DNA of 64,000 nucleotides from Bacteroidota bacterium. Its GTDB lineage: Bacteria > Bacteroidota > Ignavibacteria > Kapaibacteriales > UBA961. The stretch lies in the NCBI GenBank assembly GCA_049317525.1, contig JBMOIC010000010.1, positions 125 through 64,124 of the forward strand, given 5' to 3'. The notes under the pieces are model-generated. The model searched no databases, was not told the origin of the DNA, and was given only the letters and a program-made list of their open reading frames with translations. Below, in pieces: positions 22,910 through 57,934 of the stretch; position 1 is the stretch's first letter, and the number at the start of each line of letters is the position of its first letter. The position numbers and the translations under genes were made by a program.

Positions 22910-23062
22910 TGAATATTTTGTGACTTATATCATTAGAATGTGTCATTACATTGAAGATTTTTGCATGATAAATCTACTTTTTTTTGTTCTAAAACATTAA
23001 TTTGTTTAGGGCATTTTACTTTGATAATAAATACTATGTGTTATACCAATCGGGAGAATCAT

Positions 23063-30910: not shown

Positions 30911-30928
30911 ATAAAACCCCTGATTATT

Positions 30929-32918: not shown

Positions 32919-33389
32919 ATGAAACAAATACAACCTCATCAACATACAATTGATAGTATTAAATATAAACATCGTTTGACTGGAAAAGTAAAAAGCTTCG
33001 AAGTTGATAGACAAAATATTGTTCATAATGCCGTATATATATACTGGCTGGAAGAATCTAGAATTGAATATTTTAGGTCTATTGGAATATCTATTGACTC
33101 CGAAACATTCATTACAAAAGATCGATTTGTTGTTGCTAAGAATGAAGTTAATTATGTTTCGCCTGCACAGTTTGATCAATCATATATACTTCTAACCAGA
33201 GTTTCAGAAATCCATAATTCTTCCATCATATTTGATCAAATCATTCTATCCTATCCAGATAATCAATTAATTGTACAAGCAACAGGTGTTCTAGTTAATC
33301 TTAATCCGATAACAAATGCACCCGAAAGAATACATGATGATTATAGAAAGTTAGTTATAGATTATGAAGATTATGCTGTTTTACAATAA
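32919..33389 (+). CDS. acyl-CoA thioesterase, 4HBT/hotdog fold (YbgC-like)
   Basis: 156 aa. The hotdog-fold motif is N.VHNAVYIYWLEESRIEYF. Confidence 0.55.
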   Translation: MKQIQPHQHTIDSIKYKHRLTGKVKSFEVDRQNIVHNAVYIYWLEESRIEYFRSIGISIDSETFITKDRFVVAKNEVNYVSPAQFDQSYILLTRVSEIHNSSIIFDQIILSYPDNQLIVQATGVLVNLNPITNAPERIHDDYRKLVIDYEDYAVLQ

Positions 33390-33403: not shown

Positions 33404-35548
33404 TTGAACATGAAACATATTTCAATAATAATCTTACTATTAGCTTTAATACAATGTTATAGAGTTGATGCTCAAGATACACCAGTGTGGTATTGGGGTG
33501 CTTATGCTGGTATAAACATGAATACTCATAATGCTAATTTTAAAGAAATACAAGGTTATCCAACTTGTTGTTTACAATTTGAGAATGGAACTGGTTTAGG
33601 TTATGCAATAGGTGGGCTTCTGCAAATTCCACTTAATAATTCATTGTATGCTGGCCTTAGATTAGGTATTCATAATCCCAGTGGCACTTTATTATCTAAT
33701 GAAAATATTGGTTTTCAATTTATCAGAAATCCCAATCCTCCATTTGATACAATTGGCGCTCCAATTACTGTAGAACATTCAATTGTTGCGAACTTATTAC
33801 AAATACATATTCAGCCTTCCCTACTGTATCAAATAAGTAATTCATTATTCTTATCTGCTTCACTTGGTGCTTATTATGTAATGAATGCAAATTTTGAACA
33901 AAAAGAAACACTCATTAGTCCATCAAATGCCACATTTTTAGATGGAAAAAAAATAAGAAATGAAGCAAATGGAATAATCCCAGAATATTCTCAGATTCTA
34001 TTAAGTGGTGATATTGGTATGAGCTATGATATACCAATATCTAAGCATATGTTTATTTCTCCATATATCTCTTATCATTTACCATTTAATTCTTTAAGCA
34101 GCTTAGATTGGAAAGTGAATACTCTACAATTGGGCTTATCATTCAAAAATGGTATTCTTCCTACAAAAGAAAAACTGTACATAAAAGATACTATCTATCA
34201 AAGAGATACTATTATTCATCAGATATCAGACATCTCGAGTATTCAGCTTAGAATAGATCATAAATCTTCAGAAATACAGGAAAAAGTTATAGACAATACC
34301 ATCATTCAAACTGTATATATTTCGGAATCATATATCAAAGAAGTGCCCATCATCAAAGCTAAAAAAGCACTTTCATTATCTATGCAAACCTCTGGTATAG
34401 ACAAAAAAGGTAATCGTACAAAAGACCCAACTATTCAGATCGAAGAAATTGAAACAACAGAAACTTTTCCTTTACTTCCTTATGTATTTTTTAATGAAGG
34501 CGAATATAAATTATCATCAACTGCTCAACATCTATTAAATAGCGATGAATCCACATTGTTTAGTGAAAAAGATATTCCTTCATCGACATTAAATATTTAC
34601 AAAGACATGTTAAATATTATTGCTTTTAGAATGCAATCTGAAAAAGGATCTGTTTTAATCATAGGAAATAATAATACTTCAGGTAAAGATACAATTGAAG
34701 GAATCAGTGAAAAAAGAGCTAATGAAGTAGCAAACTATTTACATAATACTTGGTCAATACCTAATTCCAGAATAAATAAAGTAATTGGAAAATTACCTAA
34801 AAAGCCTTCTAGCAATACAAATCCATTAGGACAAGCTGAAAATAGTCGAGTAGAAATTGAATCAAATTCATTGTCTCTGATAAAGCCAATCATTAAACAA
34901 ACAATTGAAATCTCGGCAAATCCTCCTTCTTTAGAGATTAATCTATTAGAAACATCTTCAGATTCATTAGCATCATGGGATGTATCTATCATGCAAAATG
35001 GCACTGTATTTCAAATGTATAAAGGTACAGGTAAAATTCCGAATCAACCATATTTATGGGATATACCTGTAAATAAATCTATTGTAAACGAGGAACCGAT
35101 TAAGGTAAAACTTCATGCTATAGATACAAATGGAAATGAGCAAACCATTGAAAAAGAGATTACATTACAACAACTTACTATTAATAAGAAAAGAGAAGAA
35201 TTTAAAGATGACAAGAAAATTGATAGATTCTCCTTATTGCTTTTTGATCATAATAGTGCTGAATTAGATAAAAAGAATGTAGATATTATTAATACTATTA
35301 AATCATTTATTTCGCCTAATTCAAAGGTAATAATAACAGGTTATGCAGATATCACAGGTGAGAAACTTTATAATCAAGAATTAACTAGAAAAAGATGTCT
35401 AGAAGTACAAAAAAAGTTAGATATACCTGATTCAAGAACTGATATCATTCCTATGGGTAGCGATATCCTTTTATATGATAATGATTCTCCCCAAGGCAGA
35501 AGTTATTCAAGAACGGTTCAAATTCAAATTGAAACACCAATACACTAA
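33404..35548 (+). CDS. OmpA-family protein: N-terminal OM beta-barrel-like domain plus tandem OmpA-like C-terminal module
   Basis: It has a signal peptide. Two OmpA-like peptidoglycan-binding domains are present (FPLLPYVFF..., and ...LLLFDHNSAELD...ITGYADITGE...RSYSRTVQIQIETPIH). It is a paralog of the C-terminal module of the 59434..62184 protein. Confidence 0.65.
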   Translation: MNMKHISIIILLLALIQCYRVDAQDTPVWYWGAYAGINMNTHNANFKEIQGYPTCCLQFENGTGLGYAIGGLLQIPLNNSLYAGLRLGIHNPSGTLLSNENIGFQFIRNPNPPFDTIGAPITVEHSIVANLLQIHIQPSLLYQISNSLFLSASLGAYYVMNANFEQKETLISPSNATFLDGKKIRNEANGIIPEYSQILLSGDIGMSYDIPISKHMFISPYISYHLPFNSLSSLDWKVNTLQLGLSFKNGILPTKEKLYIKDTIYQRDTIIHQISDISSIQLRIDHKSSEIQEKVIDNTIIQTVYISESYIKEVPIIKAKKALSLSMQTSGIDKKGNRTKDPTIQIEEIETTETFPLLPYVFFNEGEYKLSSTAQHLLNSDESTLFSEKDIPSSTLNIYKDMLNIIAFRMQSEKGSVLIIGNNNTSGKDTIEGISEKRANEVANYLHNTWSIPNSRINKVIGKLPKKPSSNTNPLGQAENSRVEIESNSLSLIKPIIKQTIEISANPPSLEINLLETSSDSLASWDVSIMQNGTVFQMYKGTGKIPNQPYLWDIPVNKSIVNEEPIKVKLHAIDTNGNEQTIEKEITLQQLTINKKREEFKDDKKIDRFSLLLFDHNSAELDKKNVDIINTIKSFISPNSKVIITGYADITGEKLYNQELTRKRCLEVQKKLDIPDSRTDIIPMGSDILLYDNDSPQGRSYSRTVQIQIETPIH

Positions 35549-37027: not shown

Positions 37028-38635
37028 ATGGCAGTTAAAAAAACTAAGTTTATCTTCATTTCTGGTGGTGTACTTTCCTCTTTAGGAAAAGGTATTGCTT
37101 CTGCCTCTTTAGGTTTATTGTTAAAACAAAGAGGATTATCAGTAACAATCATGAAATTTGATCCATATATTAATGTTGATCCTGGAACAATGAGTCCACA
37201 ACAACATGGTGAAGTATATGTAACTGATGATGGCGCAGAATGTGATTTAGATTTAGGCCATTATGAACGATATTTAGATGTATCTGGAACACGTTATAAT
37301 AGTGTATCTTCGGGGCAAGTGTATTTTGAAGTGATTCAAAAAGAAAGAGAAGGTAGTTATTTAGGAAAAACAGTTCAAGTGATTCCTCATATAACTGATG
37401 AAATTAAACGTCGTATGACAATTTACGATAAGCAATATGATATCGTTATCATAGAAATTGGGGGCACTGTAGGCGATATAGAATCTTTGCCTTTTATGGA
37501 AACCGTTAGGCAAATTTGCCTAGAGAGAGGACCCAAAAATACATTGAATATTCATCTTACCTATGTTCCATATATTAAATCTGCAGGTGAGTTAAAAACA
37601 AAGCCGACACAACATTCGGCTAAAATGCTTATGGAAATGGGTATAAGGCCAGATATTTTATTATGTAGAACTGAATTACCATTAAATAAAGAAATCACTT
37701 CAAAAATTGCCTTATTCTGCAATGTCGAAGAAGATTCAGTAATTGAAGTTATGGATGCTGAAACGATCTATGAAGTTCCTACAAGCCTTGCTAAAAAGAA
37801 CCTTGATCAAATTGTTCTGCGTAAATTTGGTATGCCTGTTGGAAAACTTGATTTAGATACATGGAATAAATTTGTTGCGCGTATTAAAAATCCTAAGTTT
37901 TCTGTCACAATTGGTTTAGTTGGTAAATACAATCAAGTTAAAGACTCGTATAAAAGCATTCTTGAGGCATTTATTCATGCTGGCGCTATTAATAATACCA
38001 AAGTTGATGTTGTATGGATTGATTCAGAAACAATTCAAAAAAACAATGCTGCGCAAGCGTTAAAAGGTTTGGATGGTATTCTGGTTGCACCAGGTTTTGG
38101 AAACAGAGGAATTGAAGGGAAAATTGAATCAATTAGATTTGCTAGAGAACAATCTATCCCGTTTTTTGGTATTTGCTTAGGTATGCAATGCGCAGTAATC
38201 GAATTTGCGCGGAATGTAGCTGGTATGAAAGATGCAAATTCTGGAGAATTTAAAAAAGGAAAGAATTTGGTAATTAATCTAATGTCTTCGCAAAAAAATA
38301 TCACAGATAAGGGTGGAACAATGCGTTTAGGTTCTTATCCATGTAATATCAGAAAAGGTACTTTAGCATATGCAGCTTATGGTACAGAATCTATCGAAGA
38401 AAGACATCGTCACAGATATGAGTTCAATAATGCTTATCGCACTATATTAGAGCAACACGGTATGAAATTAAGTGGTGTTTCTCCTGATACTACGTTGATT
38501 GAAATTATAGAATTGAAGAATCATCCTTGGTTTGTTGGTGTTCAGTTTCATCCAGAATATAAATCTCGAGCAGTAAAAGGGCATCCACTATTCATCGATT
38601 TTGTGAAGGCTGCTTTAACGAATAAAAAGAATTAA
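37028..38635 (+). CDS. pyrG: CTP synthase
   Basis: The N-terminus is [21 protein letters not shown]. The C-terminal GATase domain carries the GICLGMQ catalytic Cys. Confidence 0.95.
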
Positions 38636-38665
38636 TCATTACCACCTAAAAGAGTAATTACTTCT

Positions 38666-39766
38666 TTAGGTAAATTTTTGTCCTTTCCATATAACTGATT
38701 TCTTTAAGAATAAGAATGGAATGATTGCTTCTATAATCATCATAAAGATCATTCCAGGAAATACATAGGCAATTTTATTCATTCTTTTAAGTGCTGCCAA
38801 TGATGGTATAACTAGAATATAGTCTCCCATTATTCTAATTATCAAGATCATGATAAGCTCATTCCATGCATGATGATATATTGCATATGCTAAAAAAGCC
38901 CAGAATATAAATGCAAAGAAAACAAAAATATGCTTTCTCCATCCTAATCCATTTGAACCCTTTATCCAACGATGAAGTTGCTTAATAAAATCAGACCAAT
39001 GTAAGCAAGGTTTTGTTTCAACTGCACATTCTTGATCGCATGGATATATGATTTTCCATCCTGATTTATGAACAGTTTGTAGTAATGATAAGTCTTCTGT
39101 TACTGAAAATGGAATGCCAGGATAGCCACCAATCTGTTGGTAAACAGCAAGCCTAATCGACAAATTATTGCCAAAACATCCTAATGGTTGGTCTAAAGAA
39201 ACACCAATACAAGCTAATGTATGGTTCATTAGCCATTCCATATCTTGCATATGTTGAAAAAATGATTCCCCTTGAACCACTGTATAAGAAGCAACTAATC
39301 CAACATTGGGATTATTAAATTGTTTTGCAATTGATTCAATCCATGTGGCTGCAACCGAACAGTCAGCATCAGTCATCATTATAATATCACTGTTAGAATG
39401 TAGTATACCTAAATGTAAAGCACCGGGTTTACCTTTAAGATTACCTTCTCTTTCTTCAATTGCATGTATCACTGTAACTTGTGGATACTTAGCAGCAAAA
39501 GTATTTGCTATTTCCCCTGTTTTATCTGATGATCTATCATTTACTACAATAATATCAAAATTGCTATATGTACTTTGTAGTAGAGAATGTAAACATATTG
39601 CAAGATTATCTTCTTCATTTCTAGCAGGAACGATAACCGATACTTTATGCAATGACTGATTGGATTGTCTTTTTCTTGCTTTTGTACGTTCTAAAGAAGC
39701 TGCAACAATAAATAGCAAAGCTTTTACTGTAAATAGTCCTGCAACCATGAAAAAGAAAATAGACAT
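38666..39766 (-). CDS. membrane-embedded GT2 glycosyltransferase (TM-GT2-TM architecture, ceramide/diacylglycerol or hopanoid glycosyltransferase-like)
   Basis: VSVIVPARNEEDNL, DADC and the QxxRW-like region HRWIKG are present. TM helices flank the domain at both ends. Confidence 0.65.
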   Translation of the reverse strand: MSIFFFMVAGLFTVKALLFIVAASLERTKARKRQSNQSLHKVSVIVPARNEEDNLAICLHSLLQSTYSNFDIIVVNDRSSDKTGEIANTFAAKYPQVTVIHAIEEREGNLKGKPGALHLGILHSNSDIIMMTDADCSVAATWIESIAKQFNNPNVGLVASYTVVQGESFFQHMQDMEWLMNHTLACIGVSLDQPLGCFGNNLSIRLAVYQQIGGYPGIPFSVTEDLSLLQTVHKSGWKIIYPCDQECAVETKPCLHWSDFIKQLHRWIKGSNGLGWRKHIFVFFAFIFWAFLAYAIYHHAWNELIMILIIRIMGDYILVIPSLAALKRMNKIAYVFPGMIFMMIIEAIIPFLFLKKSVIWKGQKFT

Positions 39767-39795
39767 ATATTATCTAAAGGTGAGATAATCAATAC

Positions 39796-41136
39796 TTATT
39801 GTAAAGATCCGACTATTTTTCTTCCTATACTATGATATTCAAATCCTAATTCAGCTATAGTATTTGGCTCATATAAATTTCTTCCATCAAATATTATGGG
39901 CATTGCCATATTATGTTTCATTAAAGCAAAGTCAGGCTTTCTAAACTCATTCCATTCTGTTGCAATAATTAATACTGCCGCGTCTGTTAATATTTCATAT
40001 GAATTTGATCCATAATGCAAAGTATCCGCATATATATGTTTTGTATTTGGCATTGCTTCAGGATCATAAACATGAATATTAGCTTCTTGTTTCAGTAATG
40101 AGTCTATAATCCTATATGCAGGCGCTTCTCTTACATCATCTGTATTAGGCTTAAAAGCTAAACCCCATACTGCAATTTTAACGCCTTTAAGATTTCCTAA
40201 ACGGTTAATGATATTAAGAATAAATCTATCTGTTTGAAATGTATTAGCAGCTTCAACTGCATGTATGATACCTAAAGGGGTTCCTACTGAATCTGTAGAA
40301 TACAATAATGCTTTTACATCTTTTGGAAAGCAACTTCCACCATAACCAATACCAGCAAATAAGAACCTTTTGCCAATTCTAGTATCAGAACCTATTCCAA
40401 TTCTTACATTTTCTATATCAGCACCAATTGCTTCACAATAACCGGACAATTCATTCATAAATGAAATTCTCATAGCTAAAAAGCAATTAGCTGCATACTT
40501 TGTGATTTCAGCACTTTTCTCATCCATAACATACATAGGATTACCACTTCTTAGAAATGGTTCATATAAATCCCTCATAGCTTTTTCTGCATATGCATTG
40601 CTAGTACCCACTACAACTCTATCAGGTTTCATAAAATCTTCAACTGCAAAACCTTCCCTGAGAAATTCTGGATTACTAACAATTTCTATAGTAAATCCGG
40701 GTGCATATTGTTGGCATACCGCCCGAACTCTTTCGGATGTAGCCACTGGTACAGTGCTTTTATTTACTAATATTCTAGGCTCTGAAATATTGTTTGATTT
40801 GATAAAAACAGATATATCTTTAGCAGCATCCAGAACATAATTTAAATCTGCAGATCCATCCTCGCCAGGCGGAGTTGGTAAACAAAGAAATAATATCTCA
40901 CATGATTTGGTTGCATATTCAAGATCATTTGTAAAATGCAATCTTCCATTTTTTATATTTCTTTCTAATAAATGTTCTAAACCAGGTTCATAAATTGGCA
41001 TGATTCCAAGCTTAAGCTTATTTACTTTATCTACATTAACATCAACACATATCACTGTATTTCCGCTTTCTGCAAAACAAGTTCCGGTAACTAGTCCTAC
41101 ATATCCTGTTCCAATTATTCCAATTGTTTGGGCCAT
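39796..41136 (-). CDS. ugd: UDP-glucose 6-dehydrogenase
   Basis: The Rossmann motif is IGIIGTGYVGLVTGTCFAE. The catalytic-Cys region is GGSCFPKD. Confidence 0.85.
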   Translation of the reverse strand: MAQTIGIIGTGYVGLVTGTCFAESGNTVICVDVNVDKVNKLKLGIMPIYEPGLEHLLERNIKNGRLHFTNDLEYATKSCEILFLCLPTPPGEDGSADLNYVLDAAKDISVFIKSNNISEPRILVNKSTVPVATSERVRAVCQQYAPGFTIEIVSNPEFLREGFAVEDFMKPDRVVVGTSNAYAEKAMRDLYEPFLRSGNPMYVMDEKSAEITKYAANCFLAMRISFMNELSGYCEAIGADIENVRIGIGSDTRIGKRFLFAGIGYGGSCFPKDVKALLYSTDSVGTPLGIIHAVEAANTFQTDRFILNIINRLGNLKGVKIAVWGLAFKPNTDDVREAPAYRIIDSLLKQEANIHVYDPEAMPNTKHIYADTLHYGSNSYEILTDAAVLIIATEWNEFRKPDFALMKHNMAMPIIFDGRNLYEPNTIAELGFEYHSIGRKIVGSLQ

Positions 41137-41166
41137 GGTTAAATCCGATTATATAGAGTAAGTGAA

Positions 41167-41364
41167 TTATTGATTATTCACTAGTTTTAAGATAACAAGT
41201 ATTAGAATTATGAGTGCACAAATGGTGAATGCAAATTTAATGAATGTGCGCGCTAACTTGAAGAGTAAGGCGATAATAATAATCGCTATGATAAGTAAAG
41301 GTAAAGCTCCTAAAGTTAATAACCAATGATAAATACTTGATATCTGATCCATTTTTACATTCAA
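41167..41364 (-). CDS. hypothetical small two-TM membrane protein
   Basis: 65 aa with two hydrophobic helices. The start overlaps the upstream TonB-like gene stop by 4 nt. Confidence 0.3.
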   Translation of the reverse strand: MNVKMDQISSIYHWLLTLGALPLLIIAIIIIALLFKLARTFIKFAFTICALIILILVILKLVNNQ

Positions 41365-42119
41365 TCCATTTTAAAACTAAATGTTATTATTCCAGACATT
41401 TCAACACCATCTGCTATCTTATTAAATCGCCAACGCTTTAATGCACTTAATGACTGTTGTTCAAGTAATGGATCACCTTTTTGCATTGGCTTCATATTTG
41501 CAACAGTTCCATCGGCTAATACAGTAAACTTTACTTTTAATTGGACATTTCTATCAAGCTTATTAGGACTTTTAGGTAATACTTTGCTTAATACAGTTCG
41601 ATTGCCTCCACCGCCCCATTCGATGTCTCCTAATCCTAAGCCTAAACCAGTCCCTATTCCCTTATCACCAAGGCCAGTACCAGAACCAGCTCCATTTCCT
41701 ATAGTTTTTCCACCACCAGATACACTATCCTTATCAGTTTTATTACTCTCAGACACTTTATCTTTTGCAATCAAGCTATTACTTTTTGTTGGGTCATTTG
41801 CAGAAGATGCTGATTTATCTTTACTAGCATCTTCTAGAGGATTAGATGGTTTTTTACCTGATGAAGAAATACCCTCAGCTGTTAAATTACCTTTTCTTTT
41901 ACCAGTTCCATCCCCTTCACCAAAATTGAGAAGAATTATTGGATGCGAAATATGTTCAATCTTGATTGGATCAATTACTACTTTGGTATATGTAAAAAAT
42001 ATCAATAATAAAACCATACAAATAAATGCATATACAAAGCCCTTTACTGTAAATTTGTCCCAAATAAAAACAAAATTTACACGTGCATTATTTTCAGTAT
42101 TTCTTGCATGATAACTCAT
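41361..42119 (-). CDS. TonB-family protein (N-terminal TM anchor, Gly-rich linker, TonB C-terminal domain)
   Basis: The C-terminus LKVKFTVLADGTVANMKPMQKG...ALKRWRF is TonB_C-like. The Gly-rich linker is GSGTGLGDKGIGTGLGLGLG. Confidence 0.6.
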   Translation of the reverse strand: MSYHARNTENNARVNFVFIWDKFTVKGFVYAFICMVLLLIFFTYTKVVIDPIKIEHISHPIILLNFGEGDGTGKRKGNLTAEGISSSGKKPSNPLEDASKDKSASSANDPTKSNSLIAKDKVSESNKTDKDSVSGGGKTIGNGAGSGTGLGDKGIGTGLGLGLGDIEWGGGGNRTVLSKVLPKSPNKLDRNVQLKVKFTVLADGTVANMKPMQKGDPLLEQQSLSALKRWRFNKIADGVEMSGIITFSFKMD

Positions 42120-42128
42120 AGGATATTT

Positions 42129-43214
42129 TTATTCGATTTTATCTATCCATGCTTGATTATAACCTGCTTTTTTTGCAGCAGATTGTGCAGATTCTCTGCT
42201 TTCAAAACCACCAAAACGGACTCTATACCAATTTGCACCTCTATTTTTATACATACTGATATAGGCACTTGATTGACCTCTAGATTTTAATTTCTTCAAT
42301 GCTTCATTTGCATCATCTTTACTTGGAGTAGCATACACTTGTACCGAGTAAATACCTTTAACTGATGACTTTTTTGTCTCTTTATTGACTATTAAATCTT
42401 TATTTAATTTATTGATATCCTTCGATTTAGGACTTAATTTTTCTTCAGTCTTAGGATTGATCTTAGATGTAATTTTCTCTTTTAATGGTGTTGCTGGGTC
42501 TAAAAAGGTTTGTTTGATAATATCTGCTTTGCTATCATTTTTAACTTTATCTTCCTTTTTAGCAACAACTTTCACATCTTTCTGTACTATTTTATTCCTT
42601 TTACTCTTATCAGATTTACCCTTAGGAGATTGAGGTTTTTCTTGAATTTTTTCTTCAATCACAGGTTTATTATCAGATATTGATTCGGAAGAATTATTAT
42701 CTAAAGGTTTGCCTTGTGCTAATTCTGCTCTTGTGATAGAATCTTGAACTCTTGCTATAGAATCCTGAATAATTGTATTTCTTAGAATAACAACTTGAGA
42801 ATCAATCTCTATGAGATCGGGATTTGAGACTTCATTATTTTCAGTTTGTTCTGTAGTATCTATTACAATTTCAGGCTGACTTTTAGGTGAATCAGGAATC
42901 AAAAAGTAAATGAGTCCAGAAATCAATAAAATTGCTGCTATTACTTTGATCCAATTATTTCCAGAATTTTTTGGTGCTGGATTATCTGCAGACATCGTAC
43001 TTGATTCTGGATTTATATATGATATAAAGCCACCTTTTTTTTCAGAATTGATTGTACCTGAAAATGGCTTATCTTGATTTTGTTCAGAATTCATAGAACT
43101 TTTTCCTTTTGATGAATTTTTAGACGAACCAGAACCGGAAAATGTTTGTCCATCCGAATCATCAAATCCTCCGAAATTATTGGGATTTGTATTTGGGTTT
43201 ATATCATCATTCAT
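42129..43214 (-). CDS. SPOR domain-containing membrane protein
   Basis: It has a single TM helix and a long disordered K/E/P-rich linker. The C-terminal SPOR-like domain is YSVQVYATPSKDDANEALKKLKSRG...NWYRVRFGGFESRESAQSA. Confidence 0.6.
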   Translation of the reverse strand: MNDDINPNTNPNNFGGFDDSDGQTFSGSGSSKNSSKGKSSMNSEQNQDKPFSGTINSEKKGGFISYINPESSTMSADNPAPKNSGNNWIKVIAAILLISGLIYFLIPDSPKSQPEIVIDTTEQTENNEVSNPDLIEIDSQVVILRNTIIQDSIARVQDSITRAELAQGKPLDNNSSESISDNKPVIEEKIQEKPQSPKGKSDKSKRNKIVQKDVKVVAKKEDKVKNDSKADIIKQTFLDPATPLKEKITSKINPKTEEKLSPKSKDINKLNKDLIVNKETKKSSVKGIYSVQVYATPSKDDANEALKKLKSRGQSSAYISMYKNRGANWYRVRFGGFESRESAQSAAKKAGYNQAWIDKIE

Positions 43215-43233
43215 ATGCAGCCATTCAGTTTAA

Positions 43234-44835
43234 TTAAAGGGAATATTTTAGGCCTAATGCTATAAAAATGCCACGTTCCTGAAAACCATTCCACAAATAT
43301 ACTTTTGAATTTAATATATTATCTAATCGAATATATCCTTTCATATTATATGGCAAAGCATAATTGCATTGCAGATTTACCATGAAATATGCTGGTAGAG
43401 AAATTGTAGACTGTTTATCAATTGATCTTTCGCCAATATACTCTGCAGAAAATACACTTTGTATATCATTATTCCACTTCATATCCCATGTAATTCCAGC
43501 TTTTATTGTCGGTAATAATGGAACTGAACCCTCAAAATCAGATAATTGACTATTAGTAAAAGCACATAATCCACTAAATGACATAGCATCATTGGGTTTC
43601 CATAATAACTCAGAGGAAAGTGTTAATATTCGAGCACCTACATATTCTATTGCATATCCAGAGTATGTATTTCTTTCTAATGAATTTGGGATATAAATAG
43701 GCATATCTGAACTGAGCCTATAATCAATTGATGTATGTATGCTTGTTTTGGCTGTTGGTTGATACATGAATGATGGTTTTATATGTATGATATCTCTTCT
43801 AAATGAAATTACTGAAGAATCGATGATATATGGATTATTCTGGACTATGTCTTGAAATGAATTTGCACTTAATCCGCTTTGTAAAAAGCCAAAAAGGGTT
43901 ATATCTTCAGACATTTGATAATGCGCATTATACGTAATAAGTACTCCACCTAATGTAATATCTAGAGAATTTGTAGCTGATTGAAGATCTACGGATATAT
44001 CTGATTGAATGTCATTGTATGTAAACTTAGTATATCCACCTAATTGTATCATATTATATGATGAGTTTTCTCGGAATGAATGTAAATCAACAGAAGCTTT
44101 AGCCCCATAATTCATTGTTCCAAATGGTCTTGAAATATCTAAAAATCCCATAATTCTTGCATCATTGGTTTGCTTCATATTTGTTTCGCATTGAAGCATA
44201 TTCCACTCAGCGCCTGTGCTGTAGGTATATTCCTGATAATTTCCTTTAGTATGTGCATGTGCTTTTACGCCTAGAATCGATCGATCTACAGAAGAATCCA
44301 TTCCAAAAAAGGAATAACCATTTCTGAATACCGATAAAGAAGATTCAGTTCTGCTGCCTCCAAAGAAAATGAACTTTTTAGGAGCATCATAACTTGCATT
44401 GATTGCTAGCTTTACTTTGCTATAATCAGCATTTTGAATATGCCCTTTACTTCCTTCATAATATCCTAATGCATCAACCGAATATCCTAATTCTTCAAAT
44501 GTATATAATCCAATTAATTTTGGAGTATAAAATTGGCCAAGTTCAGCTTGAACAGAGGTTGATGATATATTTTTTTTGAATGTACTTTTTGGTAATGTTA
44601 ACGCTGACAATAAAGGTGCTGGTATTTTTTCATTCGTATTTATTGAATCTAATTCTGTTTGTTTAAGTGATTGTGGTTTTAAAGGCTTTTGTTTAATTCC
44701 ACCTTTTATCTCTGCACTCGCTTTGCCAGTGATAACAAATTCTTGTAAATCAATAGGTTGAACAGCATTATTTTGACCTTGTTGTTGAGCACAAAGAACT
44801 ATAGGAAATACCATACATATTATGAATAGTTTCAT
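43234..44835 (-). CDS. hypothetical outer-membrane beta-barrel protein
   Basis: It has a signal peptide (MKLFIICMVFPIVLCAQQ) and an alternating amphipathic beta-strand pattern. No catalytic motifs were seen. Confidence 0.4.
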   Translation of the reverse strand: MKLFIICMVFPIVLCAQQQGQNNAVQPIDLQEFVITGKASAEIKGGIKQKPLKPQSLKQTELDSINTNEKIPAPLLSALTLPKSTFKKNISSTSVQAELGQFYTPKLIGLYTFEELGYSVDALGYYEGSKGHIQNADYSKVKLAINASYDAPKKFIFFGGSRTESSLSVFRNGYSFFGMDSSVDRSILGVKAHAHTKGNYQEYTYSTGAEWNMLQCETNMKQTNDARIMGFLDISRPFGTMNYGAKASVDLHSFRENSSYNMIQLGGYTKFTYNDIQSDISVDLQSATNSLDITLGGVLITYNAHYQMSEDITLFGFLQSGLSANSFQDIVQNNPYIIDSSVISFRRDIIHIKPSFMYQPTAKTSIHTSIDYRLSSDMPIYIPNSLERNTYSGYAIEYVGARILTLSSELLWKPNDAMSFSGLCAFTNSQLSDFEGSVPLLPTIKAGITWDMKWNNDIQSVFSAEYIGERSIDKQSTISLPAYFMVNLQCNYALPYNMKGYIRLDNILNSKVYLWNGFQERGIFIALGLKYSL

Positions 44836-47800
44836 TATCGGACCCTCCCATATTTCTTAAGTTTTGCTTGCGCTGCTTTTCCAAAATCATCATCTGCCCT
44901 AAGTGTTGATAGTGTTTGATAGACTTCAATTGCTGCTTCAATATTTTTTACTTGTTCATAGCTTTCGCCTAATCCAAGTAAAGACAATGTAAACCAATCT
45001 TCAATATTGCTAAACTTTTGTCTTACTTGATTAAATGCTTCTATTGCATTTCCTATTTCTTTTTGTTTCAGCCATGATTCACCTATTCTATATTGGGCTT
45101 CGGCTGCAATTGAAATATTTTCGAGTCTATCAATAAGCTTTCCAAAATGTACTCTTGCACTATCTAACATTCCTTTTGATCTATAGTACATAGCTATCTT
45201 ATATCTTGACTGATCACCATATTCAGAGCTAATAAACTTGTCAGCAATTTCTGTAAATAAACGTAAGGACTTAAGTGTATCTGTTAGTGACACAGCAATT
45301 TGGGCTCTTTCATATCCAGCTTGAGCTGCTGAATTGCTATTCGGGAATTCATCCATTAACTTGATAAATGCTGTGTCGGCATCCCTCAGTAATTGAGATT
45401 TTTGCTTGAGCAATCCTATTTCAAGTAATGCCAAAGGTGCAAATTCACTTTTTGAATATGATGCATACACATCTTTATAAGAAGATTCTGCTTTGGAAGA
45501 TTCACCCAAACTAGCATAACTTTTTCCTAAATAGAACAAAGCTTCGGCATTTCTTTCTTTATCATTATTCGATTTCAAAAACGATTCATATTCACTAATT
45601 GCGCTTTGAAAATTTTGTCTATTAAAAAAGCTCAATCCTTTATTCATCAGTAAATCTTTAGCTGCATCGGACTCAGGATGTGCTTTTACAAATTCATCTA
45701 CTATCTGGTCTGCTTCTTGATTTCTTCCCAAAAATTCCAAACAATACTGAATACTTTTAACTGATTCGCCCGCTAATGGTGATTGAGCATATGAGTTTTT
45801 AACAATTGAATATTCTGTGATTGCTTTTTCATATTGCTCCATATTATAATAAGCATCCCCAATAGTATAATGGGCTCTTGCACATAATGGACTAGATGGA
45901 TAAGAGCTAATCAAATCTTTTAAGTCTTCAATTGCTTCTGAATATTTTTTTTGCTGAAAATGCGTCCAACCTAATGAATATGATGCAGAAGGAGCCAAAG
46001 ATGACTTTGAATGAGATCGTATAAATGTCCTAAATGCTTGCAATGCCCCATCAAAATCATTTAATCTATATAAAGCTTGTCCATATTGATATGCAGAATA
46101 CTGCCCTTCTTCGGAATTTGGTAAGGCCTTATATGAGGCTTTATATGCAATAGAAGATTCTTTAAATTGTTTTTGGATATAAAATCCATCAGCCTTTCTT
46201 GCCCAACTTTCTGCTGCAAACCGTGAATCTGGATATTTCTTTAATAATGAAGAAAATGCCGTATTGCTTTTATTGAAATCTCTTGTCCTAAAATATGTCC
46301 AAGCTAATGCATACATACTTTCTTCAACTCTTTTGCTCTTTGGAAAATCTGAAATCAATTGATTGTAAAATTCTTCGGCATTTTTCAATAAATCTAATCT
46401 GAAATATGACTCAGCCAACCAAAACAATGCTTCATCTTTGCGTATATCACTTTTATGTTCACCTAAAAATGTAGAAAGTTCAATTGCAGCATCTTGATAT
46501 TGTTCATTTTGATGTAGTGATACTCCATTTTTCAATCTAATTTCTGCTAATATATTTTCTTTATTGGGTAATGAAATATCAGAAAGTATTATTGCATTTC
46601 TTTCAGCTGATGCATATTCTCTGGCTGCCTTACCATACATTTCTAAATCTAAAAATATACTTCCAAGTAATAGATTAATCTTAACAAGTACTGTTTTGTC
46701 GGTGGTTTCTCTTTCTGCTTTCTGCAAAGCTTTTTTTGCTATTTCTAAATCTTTATCTTCATAGGCAATTTGCCCATATTCTAATAAAGATTGAGATATA
46801 TATGGATATCCAATTTGTGCATTTAATAATGACAATTCTTTTTTTGCTTCTTCCCTTTTTTGTAATGCCTTGAGTACTATTGCATGATATAACTTTGCAC
46901 CTTGCTTAATCAAGGATTGATCATCTTGAACCGAATCAATTACTGTTTGATAATATTGTTCTGCTAATTGATACTCTTTTAAGTGTAGTGTATTATAGCC
47001 AGCAGCCAGCCATACTTGGGGTTTCAAAGAAGAGGAAGGAAATATTCGTATAAATTCTTTAGCCATACTATGGCTACTTTGGTATTGCCCCGATAATGTA
47101 AGTGCTTCTATACGCAAAAATTGTATTTCTTGATCAGATGCTTCAGAATGCACTTGTTTTTCATACATCAATCCAATTGAATCTTTTTGTGATATTCGAC
47201 GTACAATATTATGAGCTTGATCTAAGAATACAATTGCTGCATTAGGTTCTTTTAATGCTACTTTTACATTTGCTGCACGAATCGCAGAACTTAAAACTGT
47301 ATTACTATATTGATATCTACTTAATAGCTCAGCATATAAAACACCTGCTTGCTGAGATTTTAGCTCTCTTTCGGCTAATTGAGCCCTAAAATATAATGCA
47401 TCATCAGCTAATGAATGATCAGGAAATAGTTTTTGACACTCTGTAAGAAAAACTACCGACTGTTCTATATTCCCTAATTTCGCATGAGCTATACCTTTCC
47501 AATAAATTGCAGACCCACTTATATTTTTATAATAATTTTTATCAGTTTCTAATAGTTTATTAGCATTCATTGAAGCTTGATGAAAGTAATCTATAGAAAT
47601 TACTAAATCTCCTTTATGAAATGCTATTGCTGCACGCTCGAACCATGCAATGGGTATAAACTTAGAATTGTTTCTTTGTTGTATAAAATCAGCTAAAGAC
47701 TTATCTGCATAAGAATAATCAGCTTGCTCCCTCAAAATGATGGCTTGTAATATCCTAGCTTCGTCTGAGTATATCCCATCACTAAAATCTTTTAGGTATG

Positions 47801-47960
47801 TTCTTATATGTTCCCTTGATTCAATAAGATTTCCTTCTTGAAGCAAAGCATCAGTTTGCAATAGACTCTTAGGCCCATAAGAAATTTGTGGGTCTGCAAT
47901 TTGACTGTTTGCAATAACATGCACTAATGCAAACATTGCCGAAAAAAGCAATCGTTTCAT
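44835..47960 (-). CDS. large tetratricopeptide-repeat (TPR) protein, secreted
   Basis: About 1040 aa from the probable start MKRLLFSAMFALV. There are dozens of 34-aa TPR-like repeats with the W/L-G-Y-A-F-P pattern. The signal peptide lacks a lipobox Cys. Confidence 0.7.
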   Translation of the reverse strand: MKRLLFSAMFALVHVIANSQIADPQISYGPKSLLQTDALLQEGNLIESREHIRTYLKDFSDGIYSDEARILQAIILREQADYSYADKSLADFIQQRNNSKFIPIAWFERAAIAFHKGDLVISIDYFHQASMNANKLLETDKNYYKNISGSAIYWKGIAHAKLGNIEQSVVFLTECQKLFPDHSLADDALYFRAQLAERELKSQQAGVLYAELLSRYQYSNTVLSSAIRAANVKVALKEPNAAIVFLDQAHNIVRRISQKDSIGLMYEKQVHSEASDQEIQFLRIEALTLSGQYQSSHSMAKEFIRIFPSSSLKPQVWLAAGYNTLHLKEYQLAEQYYQTVIDSVQDDQSLIKQGAKLYHAIVLKALQKREEAKKELSLLNAQIGYPYISQSLLEYGQIAYEDKDLEIAKKALQKAERETTDKTVLVKINLLLGSIFLDLEMYGKAAREYASAERNAIILSDISLPNKENILAEIRLKNGVSLHQNEQYQDAAIELSTFLGEHKSDIRKDEALFWLAESYFRLDLLKNAEEFYNQLISDFPKSKRVEESMYALAWTYFRTRDFNKSNTAFSSLLKKYPDSRFAAESWARKADGFYIQKQFKESSIAYKASYKALPNSEEGQYSAYQYGQALYRLNDFDGALQAFRTFIRSHSKSSLAPSASYSLGWTHFQQKKYSEAIEDLKDLISSYPSSPLCARAHYTIGDAYYNMEQYEKAITEYSIVKNSYAQSPLAGESVKSIQYCLEFLGRNQEADQIVDEFVKAHPESDAAKDLLMNKGLSFFNRQNFQSAISEYESFLKSNNDKERNAEALFYLGKSYASLGESSKAESSYKDVYASYSKSEFAPLALLEIGLLKQKSQLLRDADTAFIKLMDEFPNSNSAAQAGYERAQIAVSLTDTLKSLRLFTEIADKFISSEYGDQSRYKIAMYYRSKGMLDSARVHFGKLIDRLENISIAAEAQYRIGESWLKQKEIGNAIEAFNQVRQKFSNIEDWFTLSLLGLGESYEQVKNIEAAIEVYQTLSTLRADDDFGKAAQAKLKKYGRVR

Positions 47961-48082
47961 AGATGTTTCGTGGGGATGGATATATGCTGCATTCCAAAAA
48001 TACAAATATCTTTAGTATTAAAAACACTGTTTTTTTAAGATACTAAGCAAATAATTTTTTTCTATGTAAAAATGTACAATAG

Positions 48083-48940
48083 TTAAAGAGATAGATCTAT
48101 ATTACCCATATTTCCTGCATGATAATCATCAATTGCTTGATTGATTTCATTGAAAGAATTCATCACAAATGGGCCCCGAGCTACAATTGGTTCATGATAT
48201 GGAATTCCATATCCAAAAAGGATTTCAGTCCCTTCTGAAGCATCAATAATTATTGTATAACCTTTATCATTGAATTGTATAAGTGAATGCTGCTTGATAT
48301 GTTCATTTTGAATCTGAACATTTCCTTTTTTTACATAAAAAAGAATAGATGAAGATTCAGGTACTTGAAGCTGAATATGTGTGTTTTCTAAAATTGATAT
48401 TGTTGATAAAAAAATATCGGTTATAGAAATAACAGGACTTTGTACCGAATGATAGGTACCACTTATCAATTTCATTATAGCATGGGGATTCAAAGATATC
48501 AATGGTAATTGCTCTGATTGAATACCCTGATATACAGGAGGAGTCATTTTTAGGGAAGATGGCAAATTAATCCATAATTGGATAATTTCTAATTCACCGC
48601 CATTCTCTTTAAATGATTCAGATACATTTTCAGAATGAATGATTCCCGAACCAGCTGTCATCCACTGAATACCCCCAGTACGAATAATACTTGAAGTTCC
48701 TAATGAATCTTTATGCTCGATATCACCATGATAAATGATAGTTACTGTTTCAAATCCCCGATGAGGATGTGGCCCAAAAGGTAATTCGAATCCTTTTTCA
48801 CATTGCATTGGTCCATGATGATGTAATAATACAAATGGATCAATATCTTTTATAGCGGTGGATGGCAAAGGTTGTTTCATCTGCAATCCACCTTCATTAA
48901 TAATCTTGGATTGCTCTATTTTTTTTATTGTTCTTATCAT
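48083..48940 (-). CDS. pirin family protein
   Basis: The cupin metal-site motifs HPHRGFETVT..YHGD..H.DS.G are present. Confidence 0.85.
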   Translation of the reverse strand: MIRTIKKIEQSKIINEGGLQMKQPLPSTAIKDIDPFVLLHHHGPMQCEKGFELPFGPHPHRGFETVTIIYHGDIEHKDSLGTSSIIRTGGIQWMTAGSGIIHSENVSESFKENGGELEIIQLWINLPSSLKMTPPVYQGIQSEQLPLISLNPHAIMKLISGTYHSVQSPVISITDIFLSTISILENTHIQLQVPESSSILFYVKKGNVQIQNEHIKQHSLIQFNDKGYTIIIDASEGTEILFGYGIPYHEPIVARGPFVMNSFNEINQAIDDYHAGNMGNIDLSL

Positions 48941-53191: not shown

Positions 53192-53706
53192 AATTCACTC
53201 TTTAATAATTGTGTAATAATATCTTGTAATTCTTCATGTTTAAATTGTTTTTCAAAGAATTTGCGAATTTTTTTTTGATTATTAATCAGTAAAGTAGCTG
53301 GTAAAGCACCACTCCACTCACTATCAACTTTATCTATCCATTCATTTGGATTTTCAGCTTTTAATAACACTATCTCGGATTGAATATCTTTCTTTTTTAT
53401 GAAAGGAAGTAGAATTTTTTCTTTGTCTTGTATAAAATCCAAACTAATTAAAAGAACTTTTACTGATTGATTTTTATACTTCGCATTAATTTCTTCAAAT
53501 ATTGGTAATTCTTCAACGCATGGCTTACACCATGTTGCCCAAAAATTTATTATGTATAATGTATCATGAGTATTATGAAGCAAAGAATCAATTTGTGAAA
53601 AAGAGATAATTCTTCCTTGATTTTGGGCATTAATATTTGGAGTGCTATGGATAAAGACCCATGCCAATAAAGGTAGAAGCAAACTATAATGTACTTTATA
53701 TAGCAT
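53188..53706 (-). CDS. TlpA/ResA-family thiol-disulfide oxidoreductase
   Basis: It has a signal peptide. FWATWCKPC is the classic WCxxC motif. Confidence 0.75.
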   Translation of the reverse strand: MLYKVHYSLLLPLLAWVFIHSTPNINAQNQGRIISFSQIDSLLHNTHDTLYIINFWATWCKPCVEELPIFEEINAKYKNQSVKVLLISLDFIQDKEKILLPFIKKKDIQSEIVLLKAENPNEWIDKVDSEWSGALPATLLINNQKKIRKFFEKQFKHEELQDIITQLLKSEL

Positions 53707-56700
53707 TATTGTATCACAGTACGTTTAGTTTGCAAGCGGTCAAAATATTGTCTGATAAGAATTTCATAGTCTTTTGTATACCCTTTTCCTAAAGATCTAA
53801 GCACATCTTGCATCGCTTTATTTCTTCCTTCTGGAGAGTTAAGATTTAACTGTGGAGGACTTTTTACCGTGATGTCTTGTCCACTTCTGGATTCTCTGTC
53901 TTTTTCATAATCTCTTTCATTCATAGATCTAGAAGCATCCAATAACCTAGACAAAATTCTTTCTTGTCTTCTTCTAGTTTCTGGAGTGATAATTCCACTT
54001 TCCATATCAGCAACAATCTCTCGCATTTCATCTGCAATTTTCTTTAAGTCGCCTAAAGATTTTCTTTTACCAGTTGGATCAGTTTGTTGTTTGGCTAATT
54101 CTTCCATAGCTTGTTGAGCTTTACCTTGTTGTCCTGCTAATCGAGCTAATTGCTGTTGTTGTTGCGGAGACAAACTTCCATCTTGTCCAGGTTGTGGCAT
54201 TCCTGAATTAATCTGTTGTTGCATACCTGCCATTTTCTGCAATTGTTGCATCATGCCTCCACTGCCTGCTTTTGCTTGGCCCTGCCCTCCGGGATTATCA
54301 CAAGATCCATCACCTTCGCCTTTCATCTTATTTAAGGCATCTTGCATTTGGATAGATGCTTTATTTAATGAACTCATAGCAGCCATTTGAGATTGAGCAG
54401 CATTCGAAGGATTTCTTTGAGATAATTGTTCAGATGCTTTTTGCATTTCTTGCATAGCATTAGACATTTCTTTTACCATTTCAGGACTTACTTTTGTTGT
54501 CTTTTGCGCTAATTGCATCATTTGGGCAGCCATATTTGCTAATTGATCTTGCAATTGCGCTTGGTCTTGGGCTGCTTTTTGTAATTGATTAGAATTAAAA
54601 TCTAATGATTCTGTTTTCTGTTTTTGGGCTTCTTCTTGTTTAGACATACTTAAAGCATCTTGCAATGATTTTTGCATTTGCCTGATGGCTTCTTTATTCA
54701 TATTTTTTTTCATCTCTTGCTTTAGCTTTTTCATTTGCTTGGCAAAATTCTTAACATTTTGCGCAGCTTTTTTCTGCTTTTGCGCAGACTTATTCATATC
54801 CCCTTTTTGCATTTCATCAGAAGCTTCTTGCATTTCTTGAGATGTTTCTTGTTCAGCTAATTCTTCTTTTGCTTTTTCAAGCTCTTTCATGGGCATTTGT
54901 TGAGCAAGATCTTTCATTAATTGTTCAAGATCTTTAAGTTCTTTTGCCATATCTTTTAAGTCTTGCTGCAATGCTTTGTTTTCTAATTCATTAGCTTTTT
55001 TTTCTGCTTGATTAGATGGATTTGTGTTTTCCGTCTTTTTGGCCAATTGTTCTTGTTGTTCTGCTAATTTTTCAGCTCTTTTAAGCAAAGCATCTGTTTT
55101 TTGTTCTGCTTGTAAACGCTTTAAAATATTCATTGTTCTTTCAATTCCCTTCCTAAATTCTTCTTCATTGAATTTCATTTGTTTCATTGCTTGTTGAATT
55201 TGTTCAGGGCTTAATTCTTGCATGGCTTTTTGCATTTCTTCCATTGCTTTCCGCAATTCTGGAGAATTTACTTCTCGCATCAGTTTTTGAAGCTCTTTAT
55301 ATTGCTCCATTGTTTCTGGTGAAATCGCATTGTTATCCTGCAACTTTTCGGTGATATCTTGCAATTTTTTATCTATCTGATCCATCTTTTTCTGAAGATT
55401 TTCCTGCTTTTTCATCAGATTATCTACTTTTTTTGCGTCTTTCCAATCCATATTTTGTTGTTGCTTTAGCATTTCTCTTTGTAATTCATCCAATTCTTTA
55501 GAGATTTCTTTTGCTTCAGCTGCTGTTTTTTCCAGATCTTTTACTGCATTATCTTGTACTGAATCTGCATTAGACAATACTTCATCTAATGAAGGTAATC
55601 GAACACTGATAATTGATGTTCTTGAAGATTTTGGGCCGGTAATAATATCATTATCAATGATTTCACAATAGAATTCATATCGATCACTTGGGGCAATTCC
55701 AACTTTATTTATATCCCACATATATGGAATATCTGCGCTTACAGTACCACTTGGAATAGGAATACTTAGCGAGCTAAAACTTTTGGACTCTGGTGCATAT
55801 TTGGATTCAGCTAATCTATACCACAGTTTTAATGATGAAAACCCATAATCATCGGCTATTTGAAGAGAAATAGGTAATAATGCTTGTTCATTTACAGTAA
55901 TATCATGATTTGGCTCTATCAATGTAATAATGGGAGAATTGTCACGAATGGTAGTTATGGAATAATGGAGTGGCTCTTCATTTATTCTTCCATCTTTGTC
56001 TTTAATTTCGATATAATATTCACCATCTTTTTTTACTGTAAATCCTCCATTTGCAACCCTTGATTCTCCTTGTAATGCTATTCTAACAGTATCATAACTT
56101 TTGGCTTTACTGCCATTTACCGTATCTTTTTGATTATATGAAGGATACAATACAATGATTGAAGCTTTGCTTATATCTTTGCTTGAAACTACAGATAATC
56201 GAACGGTAGTACCAATAAGGCTTATGATATCTGCATTTTGTTCATTTATTGTTTTTGATGCTTGTTTACTATATGCTGGTGGTTGAACGGTTCCTGAGAT
56301 AGAACGTATCTGAGGTCTATCAATCACGGTGATTTTCCCAATGGCTGTTTGTACTGGTTCATTTAACCAGTCTGACATTCCATAAAACTCTACACTTTGT
56401 TTAAGTGATTCTATCTGATAGGTATATACATTAGTAGAATCTGCTTGCAATTGAAATTTTTCGAAGTTTTGCTGTTTACCTTGCTTTAGCATCAGAAAAA
56501 CAGAGGCAGGCATAGTTCCATGTACAGTGATAGAAATGCGTGCTTTTTCACCTCTTAATTGTTCTTTATTAAGGGGAGATATCGTTAAATAGAATGGCGC
56601 AGGTGGAACAAATGATGTATCATGATTCCAAAGCCTATACAATGAAGATTGAAGAGATTGAACGCCAACAATACTAATTGATGATATAACTATTGATAGT

Positions 56701-57197: not shown

Positions 57198-57203
57198 ATA
57201 AAA

Positions 57204-57875: not shown

Positions 57876-57934
57876 ATTACATTTGTGATAGGCATAGATG
57901 AACATACATTTAATATGCATAACGTTCGAATGTA

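Follow-up and report, generated by a model that had tools for sequence, protein, structure and literature searches.

A 64,000-nucleotide stretch from a Bacteroidota bacterium (assembly GCA_049317525.1, contig JBMOIC010000010.1; the whole stretch is called the window below) carries on its minus strand the compact series of five co-directional genes considered here. Reading downstream, they encode a giant protein made up of tetratricopeptide repeats (TPRs), an outer-membrane barrel, a protein with a SPOR domain, a TonB-like protein and a small membrane protein with two helices (Table 1). An original prediction, made from the letters of the DNA without database searches, had listed five tightly spaced genes for proteins of these kinds, and all five are present as open reading frames (ORFs) where it had placed them. 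One base is common to the stop codon of the TPR gene and the start codon of the barrel gene (TAATG), an overlap that points to translational coupling, and the remaining gaps within the five are of 19, 9 and ~8 nt. The tight array goes further, spanning 38.6-48.0 kb when genes for a UDP-glucose 6-dehydrogenase and a family 2 glycosyltransferase (GT2) are included. A scan of 38400-48400 for promoters and terminators gave fewer promoter-like sites than in shuffled sequence and no credible terminators and was thus uninformative, the sigma-70 consensus being, moreover, the wrong model for Bacteroidota.

Table 1. Coordinates, in the window, of the five-gene module, its motifs and domains, and other genes mentioned in the text
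Feature	Position	Strand	Remarks
TPR protein	44835..47960	-	1041 aa from the likelier start, ATG 47960 (MKRLLF...); ORF 44835-48005, TTG 48005 being the extended ORF start
Outer-membrane barrel	43234..44835	-	533 aa
Ton-box-like motif in barrel tail	44722..44757	-	P27-K38, PIDLQEFVITGK; consensus P-L-E-L-P-x-F-I/V-I/V-x-G
SPOR protein	42129..43214	-	361 aa
Conserved acidic cytoplasmic motif of SPOR protein	43140-43175	-	F14-F25, FGGFDDSDGQTF
SPOR domain (PF05036)	42144-42356	-	Residues 287-357; 5e-15, 56 bits against a cutoff of 21
TonB-like (TonB_C) protein	41361..42119	-	252 aa
D-box-like strand of TonB-like protein	41919-41942	-	P60-G67, PIILLNFG; family P-I-x-L-L-N-F-G
Small two-helix membrane protein	41167..41352	-	61 aa from ATG 41352; 65 aa if from the overlapping TTG 41364 (41167-41364)
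UDP-glucose 6-dehydrogenase	39796..41136	-	TIGR03026, 434 bits; 30-nt gap 3' of the small ORF; may be co-transcribed
Membrane-embedded GT2 glycosyltransferase	38666..39766	-	HpnI/PgaC-like architecture; 29-nt gap after dehydrogenase
Protein with von Willebrand factor A (VWA) domain	22961-27766	+	1601 aa
Protein without family match	30074-30946	-	290 aa
YbgC-like 4HBT thioesterase	32919-33389	+	
Two-OmpA-domain protein	33404-35548	+	714 aa
Pirin-like protein	48083-48940	-	285 aa; pirin-like by synteny with locus L005
DUF4175 protein, then DUF4159 protein	53706-57938	-	DUF4175 protein 1163 aa
PD40 beta-propeller and OmpA-like protein	59434-62184	-	916 aa

A scan of species-representative genomes yielded 76 loci, all in metagenome-assembled genomes (MAGs) labelled Kapaibacteria, Ignavibacteria or Bacteroidota, and neighbors were counted at those loci whose flanking sequence was long enough. 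The TPR gene lies immediately upstream of the barrel gene at 53 of 66 loci and the SPOR gene immediately downstream of it at 63 of 67; the TonB-like gene is next after the SPOR gene at 55 of 63, a two-helix ORF of 45-70 aa follows that directly at 45 of 53, and the UDP-glucose dehydrogenase gene is next after the module at 31 of 51. This order is kept in dozens of genomes, down to a barrel identity of 24-30%, which argues that the genes are real and that their linkage is not due to chance. The source organism is a member of Bacteroidota of Kapaibacterium type, and the window barrel shares 93% identity with that of MAG OZ123195.1 and 89% with that of Kapaibacterium MYJ.27. The original prediction had made its case depend on co-conservation in relatives, and this is what was found for each partner (53/66 to 63/67 loci): the module is lineage-specific and vertically conserved in Kapaibacteria and related Ignavibacteria-type Bacteroidota. 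The recurrence of the two-helix ORF also shows that the small ORF is a real conserved gene despite its omission by one automatic gene caller. The length of 65 aa originally given for its two-helix membrane protein is probably to be trimmed to 61; in relative L009 (93% identical) the start is the ATG equivalent to 41352.

For the second gene product, originally described as a 533-aa beta-barrel of the outer membrane, an AlphaFold2 (AF2) model built with 24 homologues agrees, with a signal peptide, a disordered conserved tail of ~77 residues (17-93) and then a barrel of ~22 strands (94-533), about the size of that of BtuB and with short loops. The predicted local distance difference test score is 79 overall and below 50 for residues 1-93. 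No Pfam model matched the window copies of either this protein or the small ORF, and matches of the barrel profile to Protein Data Bank (PDB) sequences were weak (E>=0.008) and limited to the last 80 residues of transporters, so that a comparison of folds was needed. The top 50 PDB matches found by Foldseek are all TonB-dependent transporters, ZnuD being the best (4e-17) with BtuB, PfeA and OprC also among them, at template modelling (TM) scores of 0.63-0.67. PF00593 matches 18 of 24 members of the family (best 8.5e-8), the window copy itself being without a match. Fold and PF00593 matches thus place the protein in the TonB-dependent-receptor barrel superfamily, and its C-terminal residue is aromatic in most relatives. 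A profile search of 1.84 billion representatives, clustered at 50% identity, found at least 189 clusters of the barrel family at E<=1e-30, nearly all of them 520-560 aa long.

The plug of a TonB-dependent transporter is a globular N-terminal domain of about 130-150 aa that fills the barrel. The Plug model (PF07715) matches 0 of 24 family members, even at E<=1, and because, in addition, only 77 disordered residues lie between signal peptide and first strand, the plug is truly absent and not overlooked. The original prediction had allowed that the barrel might turn out to be a standard TonB-dependent receptor with its plug missed, and half of this holds: the transporter-barrel superfamily is the right one, whereas the plug is missing from the protein, with a Ton-box-like motif retained. 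Its statement that iron uptake is not at issue stands, as nothing points there, with no plug and short extracellular loops, and neither iron-uptake nor sugar-degradation genes occur in the operon at any inspected locus. Natural lidless, small-plug or plug-less 'Type S' transporters that import small sugars, and are linked to carbohydrate-degrading genes, have recently been described in Bacteroides, and barrels without a plug still function and are viable (bioRxiv 10.1101/2025.11.13.688124), so plug loss is not unprecedented in the phylum.

What stands in place of the plug, the tail, is the most conserved segment of the protein, more so than the barrel itself. Its Ton-box-like motif falls at mature residues ~10-20 and resembles, as a pattern, the sequence D/E-T/E-V-V-V-T. 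A second conserved box, E61-K70, is ELDSINTNEK in the window copy and ELDS(L/I)N(S/T)LEKQ in the family, and the residues of the tail that are invariant in alignment A1 are L30, G37, L62, D63, S64, N66 and K70. Given that the Ton-box motif was one of the two search patterns of the genome scan, the set of loci is biased to keepers of the motif, and its conservation was therefore judged on the unbiased profile search for the barrel. There, a strict regular expression for it matches 76 of 130 full-length representatives; variants are visible by eye in most of the others, and neither motif nor variant is seen in a few (P0160-P0162).

The TonB-like protein was originally put in the TonB family with a Gly-rich linker, and both elements are borne out. 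Its AF2 model has a confident membrane helix (22-44), a disordered region (59-164) and a C-terminal domain (166-252), and Pfam TonB_C matches residues 186-250 at 5e-6 (27.3 bits against a cutoff of 24.6). The best Foldseek match of that domain is E. coli TonB (1u07; TM 0.76, root-mean-square deviation 2.2 A, 30% identity), it also superposes on TonB bound to the BtuB Ton box (2gsk_B; TM range 0.76-0.79), and TolA domain III compares far less well (E>0.1), so the fold is that of a true TonB C-terminal domain. An assignment to AgmX/PglI was discarded, the match to the NCBIfam model myxo_SS_tail (7.5e-5) reaching 22.8 bits against a cutoff of 40. PxFP, the equivalent of the PxYP motif of TonB, is invariant in the family, as is GDIEWGGGGNR, and a Gly-rich GLGDIEWGGGGNR lies just ahead of the C-terminal domain.

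At the other end of the protein, W20, G27 and F28 are conserved at the cytoplasmic edge of the helix, as is a juxtamembrane PWDxxTARGF. In TonB and TolA a Ser/His motif in the membrane helix binds the motor (ExbB or TolQ). TonB has, moreover, after its membrane helix, a D-box, a beta-prone strand of hydrophobic/hydrophilic character, flanked by Pro, that binds the ExbD dimer (PMC10907165). Some 15 residues past the helix of the module protein is a conserved strand that resembles the D-box in pattern only and has no C-terminal flanking Pro; it is followed by an invariant GDGTGxxKGNLxxEG and then by the Gly/Ser-rich disordered linker. Conservation of the D-box-like strand may keep open a coupling to a motor encoded elsewhere.

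The SPOR protein is, as had been foreseen, bitopic in the inner membrane, with a single hydrophobic helix at ~88-106, a long low-complexity periplasmic linker and, at the C-terminus, a SPOR domain clearly above its Pfam cutoff. Orthologues range from 254 to 696 aa. The acidic motif in its cytoplasmic part has the longer form GGF(E/D)PxDxDD(E/D)TF(L/M)L...YPG(E/D)LP, of which the segment GGF(E/D)PxDxDD(E/D)TF is matched as a regular expression by 46 of 67 orthologues, with weaker variants visible in most others. Its conservation implies a cytoplasmic partner.

The giant TPR protein starts with a signal peptide that lacks a lipobox Cys and is predicted to be soluble in the periplasm. That it would be, at ~1040 aa, almost entirely TPR was anticipated correctly: TPR families cover nearly all of it, the units being of CpoB/YbgF and BamD type. 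Over 10 stretches taken together, model TIGR02795 (tol_pal_ybgF) reaches 279.9 bits (cutoff 90.1), and phmmer with E. coli CpoB as query finds the protein at 2.8e-21 (1e-20 to 1e-46 across orthologues). The model for E. coli CpoB itself (NF008068) scores 99.5 against 383, however, and matches with its TPR part only (positions 155-255 of 263), so that the protein is CpoB-like in its repeats and not a CpoB orthologue. As to the families with which the original prediction had proposed comparison, the CpoB/YbgF type is upheld for the repeats, whereas PorW/SprE and BamD fall below their cutoffs: NF052312 (PorW/SprE) scores 91 bits (7e-26) against 250, over model positions 540-647 only and with no lipobox Cys, and BamD is far below its curated cutoff. 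GltC identity was likewise rejected (21.7 bits, 7e-5, cutoff 450).

The small protein, for which no NCBIfam match was obtained either, has a basic loop, K-L-A-R-T-F-I-K, between its two helices, and the central motif of its family is (V/A)K(K/R)(L/F)(V/I)K(L/F)A. There is no acidic residue in either helix, which makes a proton carrier of the ExbD or TolR kind an untenable description as judged from its residues. Of the two genes downstream, the GT2 aligns over its full length with both HpnI (99 bits, cutoff 310) and PgaC (87 bits, cutoff 422), and both assignments were set aside with scores that fall so short of the curated thresholds. Adjacency of the GT2 is confined to the window's own clade (L008-L019). 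Together with the dehydrogenase it may be a synthase of a glucuronosyl lipid or polymer. Locus L005 has fliLMNO inserted between these two genes; fliLMNO follows the dehydrogenase gene in 6 of ~80 loci, and a flagellar link was dismissed on that low count. At L060 (8874-9899) and L080 (8923) mreB is directly upstream of the barrel gene in place of the TPR gene, and at L063 (18601) and L070 (15310) it is just downstream of the module; this proximity could be left over from an ancestral gene order or could point to a connection with cell shape.

TonB and TolA proteins being partners of motors, the absence of motor genes nearby was a salient part of the original prediction, and it extends well beyond the operon: none are present in the 64-kb window, nor is there one within 10 kb in any of 76 genomes. 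Apart from a single gap of ~490 nt the window is tiled by ORFs, and among these none matches the MotA_ExbB or ExbD Pfam models. Phmmer searches with E. coli TolQ, TolR, ExbB and ExbD found nothing in the window or within 10 kb at ~80 related loci, where a very divergent ExbD could escape. Equally, E. coli TolA and TolB gave no match in the window or at the ~80 loci, and the proteins matched by Pal were all unrelated ones with OmpA domains, encoded several kb away. That a motor is unlinked is in itself nothing out of the ordinary, since in E. coli, too, tonB and exbBD lie apart, as is often the case for tonB genes.

Two observations elsewhere in the window touch on Tol-Pal. The gene for a YbgC-like thioesterase directly precedes that for a two-OmpA-domain protein, an order that recalls E. 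coli, where ybgC precedes tol-pal; the same pair is beside the module in L001 and several related loci. In addition, the PorE and CHU_0125 'outer membrane integrity' models give partial matches (~125 bits, cutoffs ~600) to a protein that combines PD40 beta-propeller repeats with an OmpA-like domain for peptidoglycan binding at its C-terminus; this protein could be a tether resembling a TolB-Pal fusion, of the kind discussed in PMC12204202.

The module is a variant of the Ton/Tol class of envelope-spanning systems, and from their predicted domains its five proteins can together reach cytoplasm, inner membrane, peptidoglycan, periplasm and outer membrane. Our tentative preference, to which we give rather less than an even chance, is that they form an assembly tying inner membrane, cell wall and outer membrane to one another, with a function analogous to that of Tol-Pal/CpoB. 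The SPOR domain would dock the complex on denuded glycan, that is, at septal sites or sites of peptidoglycan remodelling; the TonB-like C-terminal domain would capture the Ton-box tail of the barrel by beta-strand addition; and the TPR giant would serve as periplasmic pillar or hub, much as the TPR domain of CpoB does for TolA and PBP1B. As a result, while the cell grows or divides, its outer membrane would be tethered, or pulled, to wall and inner membrane, a task that falls to Tol-Pal/CpoB in Proteobacteria. Any force would have to be supplied by a motor of ExbBD or TolQR type with its genes elsewhere, acting via the D-box-like strand and not via a Ser/His motif in the helix; alternatively, with no motor, the link would be a passive staple. 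Such an assembly fits the report that no tol-pal loci can be identified in Bacteroidetes (PMC12204202). The original prediction of a Tol-Pal-like or division-associated system is in this sense partly sustained: the CpoB-type TPR units, the SPOR domain and the TonB domain are there, while the role is read from domain content. A more ambitious version, in which Kapaibacteria and their relatives have evolved their own answer to Tol-Pal, from a transporter that lost its plug to serve as pure outer-membrane anchor, a dedicated TonB paralogue holding its Ton-box tail, a SPOR protein directing the whole to septal peptidoglycan and a CpoB-repeat organizer, seems to us unlikely.

Several points weigh against an envelope bridge of this kind. 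SPOR domains are also found in proteins not dedicated to division, and CpoB-type TPR units also in BamD and PorW, making the latter similarity unspecific. The membrane helix of the TonB-like protein has no conserved Ser/His (SHLS) in two alignments of 26 and 36 sequences (A2 and A3). A protein that could itself act as tether, the PorE-like PD40 and OmpA protein, is situated 11 kb from the module; the adjacency of the dehydrogenase gene at 31 of 51 loci hints at a link to a sugar polymer instead; and some of the adjacency overall may be passive, synteny in the lineage being broadly conserved. The TonB-like gene is missing within 10 kb at ~9 loci (L037, L052-56, L062, L065 and L082), and a distant high-GC variant, L086, retains TPR, barrel and SPOR genes with no TonB-like gene and a barrel devoid of the ELPxFII motif. 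Because of these absences the core of the module is TPR, barrel and SPOR protein, to which TonB-like and small protein are a frequent add-on, and a Ton link cannot be essential to the function of that core.

In the sub-clade of those ~9 loci the SPOR protein is mostly of 600-650 aa (479 in L062), of which roughly 260-430 aa are cytoplasmic. A fusion of SPOR and TonB-like protein there was considered and rejected, the TonB-like profile matching nothing inside the long SPOR proteins. The barrels of this sub-clade still hold the Ton-box-like motif.

The fold and PF00593 homology of the barrel, its retained Ton-box-like motif and the TonB-type gene close by are also what would be expected if it were a reduced transporter without plug, importing a small solute with the help of the adjacent TonB paralogue, the TPR and SPOR proteins being accessory or merely syntenic. 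A distant motor would be no obstacle, given how often tonB genes are unlinked from exbBD, and plug-less or reduced-plug transporters do exist in Bacteroidota (bioRxiv 10.1101/2025.11.13.688124). We nevertheless consider uptake unlikely. It leaves unexplained the most conserved partners, SPOR (63/67) and TPR (53/66, with TAATG coupling), and the TonB-like gene is the part that can be dispensed with; the loops are short and it is the tail that is most conserved; and there is no linked gene for a sugar-degrading enzyme, binding protein or inner-membrane transporter at any locus. Another reading is export, the presence of TPR protein beside barrel being the hallmark of synthase-dependent secretion. 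In such a scheme a polysaccharide or glycolipid containing glucuronic acid would leave through the barrel, wide enough without its plug to pass a polymer, TPR protein and barrel having the role of AlgK/AlgE, PgaA, BcsC or PelB and the small, PgaD-like protein that of synthase partner, with the dehydrogenase supplying and the GT2 polymerizing the sugar. Dehydrogenase directly after the module (31/51 loci) and, in the window's clade, a PgaC/HpnI-like GT2 across a gap of 29 nt are in keeping with this. The top 50 fold matches, however, are TonB-dependent transporters to the last one, with no polysaccharide-export barrel (16-18-strand type) among them; GT2 adjacency is restricted to one clade and the scores for PgaC and HpnI are far short of their cutoffs; the genes are accompanied neither by a polymer-modifying enzyme nor by a c-di-GMP receptor; SPOR and TonB-like partners are left without a purpose; and the dehydrogenase link is weakened by broad passive synteny, of which fliLMNO (6 loci) and mreB (4 loci) are instances. 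Export is on balance quite unlikely.

A slender chance is given to a motor-driven machine akin to Myxococcus Agl-Glt/Nfs, or an accessory of type IX secretion and gliding, that would move or expose a surface component. The parallel is one of architecture, GltD being a ~1200-aa TPR pillar, GltG and GltJ having TonB-type C-terminal domains and GltA/B/H being barrels, with GltF as a further counterpart (PMC11761067). No SPOR domain figures in the Glt components described there. The faint matches to myxo_SS_tail on the TonB-like protein and to GltC and PorW on the TPR protein are consistent with the parallel, and the lineage does have type IX cargo (Por_Secre_tail); yet all three matches are short of curated cutoffs by the margins given above, there is no locus with an AglRQS- or TolQR-like motor within 10 kb, the TPR giant has no lipobox, whereas the PorW/SprE model is of a lipoprotein, and the adjacent genes include no further member of the Glt, Nfs or Por sets.

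Comparison with known systems brings out what would be distinctive about an envelope bridge of this composition. With the Ton system (TonB with BtuB or ZnuD) the module has in common the ~22-strand fold with weak PF00593 similarity, a Ton-box-like motif near the mature N-terminus, and a partner with membrane helix, disordered linker, TonB domain, PxFP and D-box-like strand. It differs in that the plug is replaced by the conserved disordered tail of 77 residues and the loops are short; in that its TonB-like protein lacks SHLS and has a linker rich in Gly and Ser, not in Pro as in TonB; and in being operonic with TPR and SPOR genes, not with uptake genes, and without exbBD within 10 kb (76 genomes). 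With Tol-Pal/CpoB it shares a bitopic transducer of the TonB/TolA class, a CpoB-type TPR component, a peptidoglycan-binding component and, as in TolB, a disordered N-terminal 'box' on the partner at the outer-membrane side, and both would plausibly act at division sites. In contrast, TolQ, TolR, TolB and Pal are not in the module operon; peptidoglycan would be bound by SPOR anchored in the inner membrane, whereas Pal is OmpA-like and anchored in the outer one; the outer-membrane partner is an integral barrel; the C-terminal domain of the transducer is TonB-like and not TolA-III-like; and the TPR protein is four times the length of CpoB without the coiled-coil N-domain of the latter.

The SPOR protein by itself is reminiscent of FtsN, DamX and DedD in its N-in bitopic topology, long low-complexity linker, C-terminal SPOR domain and short conserved cytoplasmic peptide, and in some orthologues the cytoplasmic part is long, as in DamX. 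Its motif is acidic (GGFxxxDxDDxTF), however, where FtsN has a basic N-terminus, nothing resembling the essential domain of FtsN is recognizable, and unlike the genes for those three proteins it is operonic with an outer-membrane barrel gene. The barrel, for its part, recalls the Bacteroides 'Type S' transporters, also Bacteroidota members of the superfamily barely detected by standard Pfam models and with plug reduced or absent; compared by description only, those differ in serving sugar import beside carbohydrate-degrading genes, whereas the module barrel is linked to TPR, SPOR and TonB-like genes. With Agl-Glt/Nfs the likeness is in the list of parts (TPR pillar, bitopic TonB-type proteins with cytoplasmic extensions, barrels, small accessory protein), and the difference lies in there being no detectable orthology and no linked AglRQS motor, a barrel of another type, and SPOR unique to the module.

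Literature searches found no description of the operon, and neither for the operon as such nor for its barrel or small protein was a curated family found. How the outer membrane is held and constricted in Bacteroidota without a recognizable Tol-Pal is an open question (PMC12204202), for which the module is a concrete candidate. If the envelope bridge is real, it would mean that constriction or tethering of the outer membrane had evolved by a separate route where canonical tol-pal is reported lacking, and would exemplify the structural use of a nutrient-transporter barrel as well as a TonB paralogue minus the classical motor-binding motif. Even if the function is one of transport or export, there would remain a sizeable, uncurated class of plug-less barrels of transporter fold with a conserved N-terminal tail.

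Among the other genes of the window, a 290-aa protein has no Pfam or NCBIfam match, and a 285-aa protein, unmatched in the NCBIfam search, looks pirin-like by synteny with L005. The 1601-aa protein, with VWA domain, several Ig-like domains (ASH/Cep192/HYDIN-type) and a C-terminal Por_Secre_tail, is type IX secretion cargo, and its presence implies that the organism has type IX secretion. The DUF4175 protein, encoded ahead of a DUF4159 protein, has a very long coiled coil rich in Lys, Glu and Gln, which is responsible for a dip in AT skew to -0.33 at 54-56 kb; at the equivalent position in L005 is a Pfam-less protein of 1161 aa.

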